Shown here in pieces: positions 16,262 to 16,580 of a stretch of 64,000 nucleotides of DNA. The DNA comes from Escherichia coli. Lineage in GTDB: Bacteria > Pseudomonadota > Gammaproteobacteria > Enterobacterales > Enterobacteriaceae. The stretch lies in assembly GCF_003334765.1 (NCBI RefSeq), contig NZ_QOWT01000002.1; one strand, 5' to 3'. The translations under genes were made by a program, and so were the position numbers. The notes beneath the pieces are model-generated. The model was not told the DNA's origin. It saw only the letters and a list, made by a program, of their open reading frames with translations, and searched no databases. Position 1 is the first letter of the stretch. The number at the start of each line of letters is the position of its first letter.

Positions 16262-16580
16262 TGAGCTTTCATCCTATGAAATTAATTGCTGTTAAAAGCA
16301 TTGGGTACAGAAAATACCCATAGCTCCATACCCGGAGTCAGTTTTTAAAAACTGTTTAAAGAAATGCACAAGTATTGTGATTGATTTTTTAGTTGTTTTT
16401 CTTGATGAGAAGCTGATGCAAAATTCCGTCTTTATAATGAAAATGATGCCAAAGCGAACGACAAGGTTGTAGTTTTCACTACATGTCCATACATAAAATG
16501 GGGTAACATTCACGCGCCTGGTAGCGTTACCAACGCTACGCTCAAACATAATGATTCTAATAAAACCTCAGGAGACTACT

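Follow-up and report, generated by a model that had tools for sequence, protein, structure and literature searches.

The genes yejO and narP of Escherichia coli diverge from a short spacer, and this locus raises two questions: how its promoter region relates to that of K-12 MG1655, and which role a small hairpin in front of narP could have. The window analysed here is a stretch of 64,000 nucleotides of the E. coli contig NZ_QOWT01000002.1 (assembly GCF_003334765.1). The genes and the insertion target that matter for the first question are the following:

13670 to 16261, minus strand: yejO, an intact 863-aa autotransporter gene that is a pseudogene in K-12 (ORF list).
16195 to 16198, unstranded: single ATAA, the 4-bp IS5K target that is duplicated in K-12 and uninterrupted here (4-bp overlap of the BLAST segments; MG1655 junctions).
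16581 to 17228, plus strand: narP, 215 aa, with its ATG at 16581 (ORF list).

The spacer between the two genes occupies 16262 to 16580. The first-pass annotation had described it as AT-rich, which is right (GC 0.36, that is 36%), and as 320 bp long, which is one base pair too many, the length being 319 bp. It had also reported no insertion sequence and no transposase-like ORF in the spacer, and this is borne out: the only internal ORF of at least 40 aa, which encodes 85 aa on the minus strand at 16292 to 16549, matches no family in the NCBIfam scan. An Rfam 15 scan of 16150 to 16700 at a permissive E-value gives nothing above chance, the best matches reaching 10 to 16 bits against gathering thresholds of 47 to 80. 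A sigma-70 consensus scan detects no promoter-like site within the spacer; the narP start sites used below are taken from the literature, and the −10 and −35 elements could not be placed. A second inverted repeat, TTGGGTA-CAGAAAA-TACCCAT, is located at 16301 to 16321, 40 to 60 bp upstream of the yejO ATG. It includes a perfect TACYYMT heptamer and is flagged by the scan as a minus-strand terminator-like stem.

The MG1655 feature table (region 2284000 to 2294000) has IS5K/insH8 at NC_000913 2288919 to 2290113 and divides yejO into two pieces, a 'fragment 1' of 67 nt that opens with the ATG and a 'fragment 2'. IS5K therefore interrupts the coding sequence of the K-12 gene past its nt 67, in codon 23. 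The earlier statement that MG1655 carries an IS5 in the divergent spacer is therefore correct about the locus and wrong about the place. When MG1655 is aligned, no IS5 is found between 16262 and 16580, and its spacer, also of 319 bp, is identical to that of the window at 319 of 319 positions, hairpin included. It follows that the window strain has no promoter region that K-12 is missing, and that the difference between them is the uninterrupted yejO ORF. The yejO sequence is 100% identical across 2598 nt to the two MG1655 fragments by BLAST, and an identical genome annotates it as 'autotransporter YejO', of 2592 nt.

At the K-12 junctions, ATAA is followed by GGAAGGTGCG on one side and CACCTTCC is followed by ATAA on the other, so that an ATAA duplication flanks IS5K. 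This allele, with its terminal repeats beginning GGAAGGTGCGAA and the ATAA duplication, is absent from the window, which is contiguous over 16195 to 16198. Published descriptions place IS5K in yejO 'close to its start codon' (PMC11005336) and IS5 inside yejO in direct orientation (PMC11677980). The IS5K junction query is covered to at least 80% in 357 of 5426 complete E. coli genomes, and the carriers, among the matches listed, are K-12-type laboratory strains; 5002 of 5425 genomes have the region in one uninterrupted piece. It is thus practically certain that the window holds the usual IS-free allele, that the K-12 IS5K sits in yejO and not in the spacer, and that an intact yejO is the only local consequence. 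This part of the analysis only corrects the placement of the K-12 IS5, an intact yejO being normal in most E. coli, as here. A true case of what had been ascribed to K-12 is found in E. coli QDFD216 (L085, NZ_CP053211.1, 563 to 1658), which has an IS1X2 in the yejO–narP spacer proper, about 16 bp upstream of the yejO ATG.

Whether the IS-free promoter region is also ancestral depends on the part of the spacer considered. Two parts are distinguished:

16262 to 16470, unstranded: yejO-linked part of the spacer, 209 bp, which together with yejO makes up 13617 to 16470; absent from yejO-less Escherichia and from Citrobacter.
16471 to 16580, plus strand: ancestral narP control core, in which the proximal start region is followed by the hairpin, then by the A-rich tract and the Shine-Dalgarno sequence (orthologue alignment; BLAST breakpoints).

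Positions 13301 to 13616 and 16471 to 16700 of the window align by BLAST to positions 1051 to 1364 and 1390 to 1620 of L003, a locus of a yejO-less Escherichia lineage, with 25 nt between the two segments. The first segment holds the end of lapC, the tRNA-Pro(GGG) gene and its terminator, and the tRNA-Pro gene (proL) is found at 1241 to 1317 of L003. The proL flank is also directly upstream of narP in Citrobacter (L025, L011, L018 and L012). In E. coli E69 (L002) the same yejO-less sequence is present directly upstream of the breakpoint; its proL side is not visible because only 133 nt upstream of its narP are covered. As proL adjoins the narP core in L003 and in Citrobacter, yejO plus the 209 bp (2854 bp in total) represents an insertion beside proL. 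The yejO-less junction is found in no complete E. coli genome, either by megablast or then by blastn, which indicates that the insertion is fixed in essentially all E. coli; it is present in E. albertii as well. The description of an ancestral, uninterrupted promoter region hence stands as far as the IS-free state is the usual one, and fails for the yejO-proximal 209 bp, which are themselves part of an insertion. Judging from these alignments, the term 'ancestral promoter region' fits no more of the spacer than its narP-proximal third.

The narP-proximal part is a leader that has been mapped. Brosse et al. 2022 (PMC9262595) worked with a 5' UTR of 150 nt, counted from the dRNA-seq start that lies furthest upstream, and an earlier narP fusion used a 5' UTR of 78 nt (Hao et al. 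2016, as cited in PMC9262595). The 'nts 137-140 CUCA' of the former paper correspond to window 16567 to 16570, which sets +1 at 16431, and the RprA pairing coordinates can be transferred because the spacer is identical to that of MG1655. The elements of the leader, from 5' to 3', are:

16431, plus strand: distal narP transcription start, +1 of the 150-nt 5' UTR (PMC9262595).
16446 to 16472, plus strand: 8-codon uORF (MPKRTTRL plus its stop codon) lying inside nt 1 to 50 of the long leader (sequence).
16484 to 16506, unstranded: conserved box TGTCCAT-ACATAAAA-TGGGGTA (alignment upstream of narP orthologues).
16503, plus strand: approximate start of the 78-nt 5' UTR (Hao et al. 2016, as cited in PMC9262595).
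16521 to 16539, plus strand: hairpin GTAGCGT(T)-(T)ACC(A)-(A)ACGCTAC, at −60 to −42 from the ATG (sequence).
16540 to 16569, plus strand: A-rich linker with AAN triplets, GCUCAAACAUAAUGAUUCUAAUAAAACCUC, region of the Hfq distal-face site (sequence; PMC9262595).
16546 to 16584, plus strand: RprA pairing region, nt 116 to 154, −35 to +4 (PMC9262595).
16570 to 16574, plus strand: Shine-Dalgarno AGGAG (sequence; the narPmut2 CUCA adjoins it in PMC9262595).

Several of these elements have assigned functions. The distal face of Hfq represses narP independently of sRNAs, which requires the AAN motifs close to the initiation region, and the distal-face mutant Hfq Y25D phenocopies delta-hfq for narP (PMC9262595). 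A second effect of RprA on narP needs only nt +1 to +50, a segment, narP(+1+50), for which an 8-aa uORF is mentioned (PMC9262595). The hairpin is inside both reported 5' UTRs, at nt 91 to 109 of the long mRNA and at about nt 19 to 37 of the short one, and a hairpin, a stem-loop or secondary structure is mentioned 0 times in PMC9262595. It is a so far undescribed element between two studied segments of the mapped narP leader, directly 5' of the A-rich tract.

Some other features of the leader are recorded here. The strongly conserved box at 16484 to 16506, whose Citrobacter and Salmonella counterpart reads TACCCAT-N8-TGGGGTA, looks like inverted NarL/NarP heptamers at a non-canonical spacing; candidate functions are those of the proximal promoter, of an autoregulatory site or of a site for another protein. 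The ORF finder puts the narP start at an ATG in frame with narP 30 nt upstream (16551 to 16580, ATGATTCTAATAAAACCTCAGGAGACTACT), which lies in the AAN/RprA region, is kept in Citrobacter as ATGATACTAATAAAA and has no Shine-Dalgarno sequence of its own; it is probably not a start codon. The 5' end of SdsN137, UUCAGGCA, appears by eye to be complementary to UGCCUGAA at narP +2 to +9.

The hairpin noted in the first-pass annotation, GTAGCGT-TACCA-ACGCTAC, is present, and its 3' end is 42 nt before the narP ATG, in agreement with the estimate of about 40 nt. It does not abut the ribosome-binding site, since AGGAG is 30 nt further on and the A-rich tract lies between. The hairpin can be drawn with 7 bp and a 5-nt loop, or with 8 bp and a 3-nt loop (GTAGCGTT-ACC-AACGCTAC). 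Its RNA has a minimum free energy (MFE) of −10.2 kcal/mol, and the stem pairs have probabilities of 0.97 to 0.999 in folds of both full-length narP leaders, of 150 and of 78 nt. A perfect 7-bp hairpin with a loop of 3 to 8 nt is also obtained in 14% of 5000 dinucleotide shuffles of the spacer, and the fold has z-scores of −2.2 over 31 nt and −1.6 over 37 nt. From these values the E. coli hairpin alone is not beyond chance, and because it is unremarkable by itself, the case for it depends on conservation. The same values speak for a neutral origin, in which the hairpin is a chance palindrome whose invariance in E. coli comes from low diversity and from selection on the adjacent promoter and on the A-rich Hfq/sRNA tract.

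The motif AACGC occurs three times in this region, twice in and after the 3' arm (CCAACGCTACGCTC, 16530 to 16545) and once at narP codons 4 to 6 (GCAACGCC). The 5' arm could alternatively pair with the coding copy, which is destroyed in K-12 by the synonymous change G16595A; the coding copy and its loss in K-12 are probably a coincidence.

Within E. coli, the 51-nt block that contains the hairpin (16505 to 16555) is identical in 5349 of 5407 genomes (98.9%), versus 3995 of 5372 (74%) for the spacer block at 16420 to 16470 and 4783 of 5380 (89%) for that at 16330 to 16380. This difference counts against a neutral palindrome, although the identity of the block could reflect constraint on the neighbouring promoter and A-rich tract and not on the stem. 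The rare variant that was examined, T16527A, opens the closing pair of the stem. Outside E. coli, the stem is kept in the yejO-less lineage L003, where only a loop base has changed, and in E. albertii, where only the outermost pair is lost; changes restricted to the loop and the outermost pair also count against neutrality.

For the comparison with other genera, 80 narP loci were retrieved. Citrobacter, Salmonella and Trabulsiella have the same order as E. coli, with the GGGGTAA box, a hairpin, the AACAATAATGAT.CTAATAAAA tract and the Shine-Dalgarno sequence, and the AACAATAATGAT.CTAATAAAA block is highly conserved among genera. The hairpin of Citrobacter and Salmonella is in the same position and longer than that of E. 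coli, about 33 nt, and consists of a variable basal helix and a conserved apex GAAUC-UGGAC-GAUU (GAAUCUGGACGAUU apex in Citrobacter). A single hairpin is both the MFE structure and the centroid in 16 of the 17 Citrobacter, Salmonella and other Escherichia sequences folded, among them all those of Citrobacter and Salmonella. These hairpins share one position, flanked by the GGGGTAA box on one side and the AACAATAA tract on the other, and their z-scores go as low as −5.4. Compensatory changes are visible in the stems (CAGCGC/GCGCTG, CAGCAC/GTGCTG, CAGCGT/ACGCTG, CAACGC/GCGTTG and TCGAT/ATCGA). That a hairpin is kept at the same position in three genera despite turnover of the stem sequence is a further point against a chance palindrome.

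The formal tests of covariation are less favourable to the hairpin and give the neutral reading part of its support. By fixed-register counting, the named structure pairs 72.6% of cells versus 26 to 38% with slid partners; five pairs are changed on both sides in the Citrobacter and Salmonella set, a count that is reached by 127 of 500 shuffles. RNAalifold predicts no consensus pairs among the orthologous hairpins, partly because some lineages shift register by one (for example L017, L019 and L024), and with such shifts counting by column breaks down. The E. coli version goes undetected by a covariance model (R1) built on the long hairpin of Citrobacter and Salmonella, so the homology of the long and short versions is positional only; the short E. 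coli hairpin would fit with the apical part having been lost in Escherichia. Together with the small effect of its removal in silico on access to the ribosome-binding site, described below, these results leave the neutral palindrome as a rather doubtful account that retains some weight. The reading of the hairpin as a constrained RNA stem-loop is held with modest confidence, as the probable one.

Further from E. coli, the Trabulsiella leader gives a weak fold, with another small helix as its centroid, the fold in Silvania is no better than in shuffles, and the narP leaders of Yersinia, Serratia and Pantoea are unrelated. In Intestinirhabdus alba (L007, 1281 to 1333) the long-hairpin model matches with 36 bits about 170 to 220 nt upstream of narP and not at the usual −75 to −35 position, which suggests, from this one sequence, a possible insertion between the hairpin element and the Shine-Dalgarno sequence in that genus.

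The drift of the stem sequence also bears on whether the repeat acts as DNA. A palindromic operator of 8-3-8 form, bound by a dimeric factor downstream of the proximal start and working as a roadblock or repressor, would account for the perfect palindrome of 8 bp, which falls at about +19 to +37 when counted on the short transcript, and the conserved box with NarL/NarP-like half-sites 15 bp upstream makes protein binding in the core plausible. Across genera, however, the stem drifts while its complementarity is kept, which argues for RNA pairing rather than for a DNA sequence recognised by a protein, and the stem is no match to the 7-2-7 consensus of NarL/NarP. To our knowledge, the stem contains no familiar E. 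coli operator consensus. An operator is accordingly regarded as improbable.

Three classes of element were considered and rejected for the hairpin. It is not an intrinsic terminator or attenuator: the stem is followed by GCTCAAACAT, which is no U-run, and it is unlisted by the terminator scan. It is not a hairpin that sequesters the ribosome-binding site, the stem ending at 16539 and the Shine-Dalgarno sequence being at 16570 to 16574; in silico, complementing the 5' arm or deleting the hairpin shifts the opening energy of the TIR by just 1 to 2 kcal/mol. The hairpin is thus neither a terminator nor a mask of the ribosome-binding site. It is not a NarL/NarP 7-2-7 site either, as it does not match TACYYMT-NN-AKRRGTA; the nearest match in the spacer, at 16490 to 16505, has 3 mismatches, and 7-2-7 matches of this quality are at chance frequency, with 35 observed versus 28 expected; the heptamer scan of the spacer is at chance level as well.

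A co-transcriptional signal is a related possibility, in which the hairpin pauses the polymerase or takes part in Rho-dependent or premature termination of the long leader and is tied to the second, indirect effect of RprA. The leader is indeed long (150 nt), and premature termination has been raised as a possibility for this second control (PMC9262595). The second control, however, needs only 16431 to 16480 (nt +1 to +50) and the hairpin is outside that segment, so that pausing or attenuation fits poorly; moreover, no U-tract comes after the stem and no C-rich, G-poor, rut-like tract is adjacent to it, the downstream sequence being A/U-rich. Such a signal is very improbable.

The constrained stem-loop remains the preferred reading, and an action on the narP 5' UTR is plausible from its position. 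The inverted repeat is transcribed within the narP 5' UTR from both reported starts, and the transcript most likely folds into a small autonomous stem-loop immediately 5' of the single-stranded AAN tract bound by Hfq and of the RprA/SdsN137 target region. The stem-loop could serve as a structural boundary that insulates the Hfq/sRNA platform and the ribosome-binding site from the variable upstream leader, and it may add to Hfq docking or to mRNA stability. It belongs to an ancestral narP core of about 110 bp, in a longer form in Citrobacter and Salmonella and a shortened one in Escherichia. The role of boundary module for the Hfq/sRNA platform is proposed only tentatively. The complete statement, that the locus carries the usual IS-free allele and that the hairpin forms a stem-loop of the leader at the edge of the Hfq/sRNA platform, is slightly favoured.

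The leader already models multi-level control by Hfq, RprA and SdsN137, and the hairpin is a cheap and testable addition to it. For the sRNA-independent effect of Hfq, whose mechanism published work has left open, the conserved stem just 5' of the AAN site is a natural target of mutation; the importance for genome biology at large is little.

The insertion beside proL also divides this leader. The yejO-linked DNA carries the distal narP start (16431) together with the uORF and the greater part of the '+1+50' segment, and the hairpin lies in the ancestral core. Salmonella and Citrobacter lack this yejO-linked DNA, which in E. coli holds the distal promoter and the first 40 nt or so of the leader, so that findings made with the 150-nt E. 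coli leader need not apply to them. In a stronger form, the leader would be a functional mosaic, in which the ancestral core of stem-loop, AAN tract and Shine-Dalgarno sequence works in Hfq repression, and an Escherichia-specific distal promoter, the uORF and the RprA-responsive '+1+50' segment were acquired with the yejO islet; the stem-loop would then position or insulate the Hfq site in sRNA-independent repression. This mosaic is considered unlikely. If it were true, part of the multi-level control of NarP would have arisen by gene insertion, and the hairpin would mark the boundary of the old leader.

Two observations concern NarP itself and its sites. The narP gene differs from that of K-12 at two positions, the synonymous 16595 and 16675, where codon 32 is Phe (TTT) in the window and Ser (TCT) in MG1655. 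All 17 orthologues inspected have Phe32, in a set that ranges from Escherichia to Trabulsiella and Silvania, and the exact K-12 51-mer is found in 366 of 5426 E. coli genomes, about the size of the IS5K-junction set. Since Phe32 is invariant and the K-12 51-mer rare, the S32 of K-12 NarP may be a derived substitution in the receiver domain. The best NarL/NarP-type 7-2-7 match of the window is TACCCCGATCGGGGTA at 29692 to 29707, with 2 mismatches to the degenerate consensus, at a position that we take to be in the promoter region of napF, downstream of ccm.

Among known systems, the K-12 yejO pseudogene (b2190/insH8) is at the same locus, with flanks that are identical at 100% on the yejO side and 99.8% on the narP side; it differs by the 1195-bp IS5K, which is missing here, so that yejO is a complete ORF of 863 aa. 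The yejO gene with its 209 bp resembles tRNA-adjacent genomic islets in following directly after the terminator of proL (tRNA-Pro GGG) and in being absent from related lineages, and differs from them in that no integrase, tRNA 3'-end repeats or mobility genes were seen in a non-systematic look. Like intrinsic terminators and leader attenuators, the hairpin is a short stem-loop of a leader and has four G-C pairs, whereas the stem here has no U-run and the consensus scan makes no call.

In its structure, the narP leader may be comparable to the mutS mRNA. As in sRNA-independent repression by Hfq through (AAN)n sites of the 5' UTR, the leader has an A-rich distal-face site by the TIR and a structured element that flanks it, and mutS is cited as a precedent for this type of repression (PMC9262595). 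From the narP 5' UTR control region as published (PMC9262595) the hairpin differs in that the RprA controls described there (nt 116 to 154 and nt 1 to 50) exclude nt 91 to 109, but it lies within this same region, 7 nt upstream of the RprA pairing and adjoining the AAN tract.
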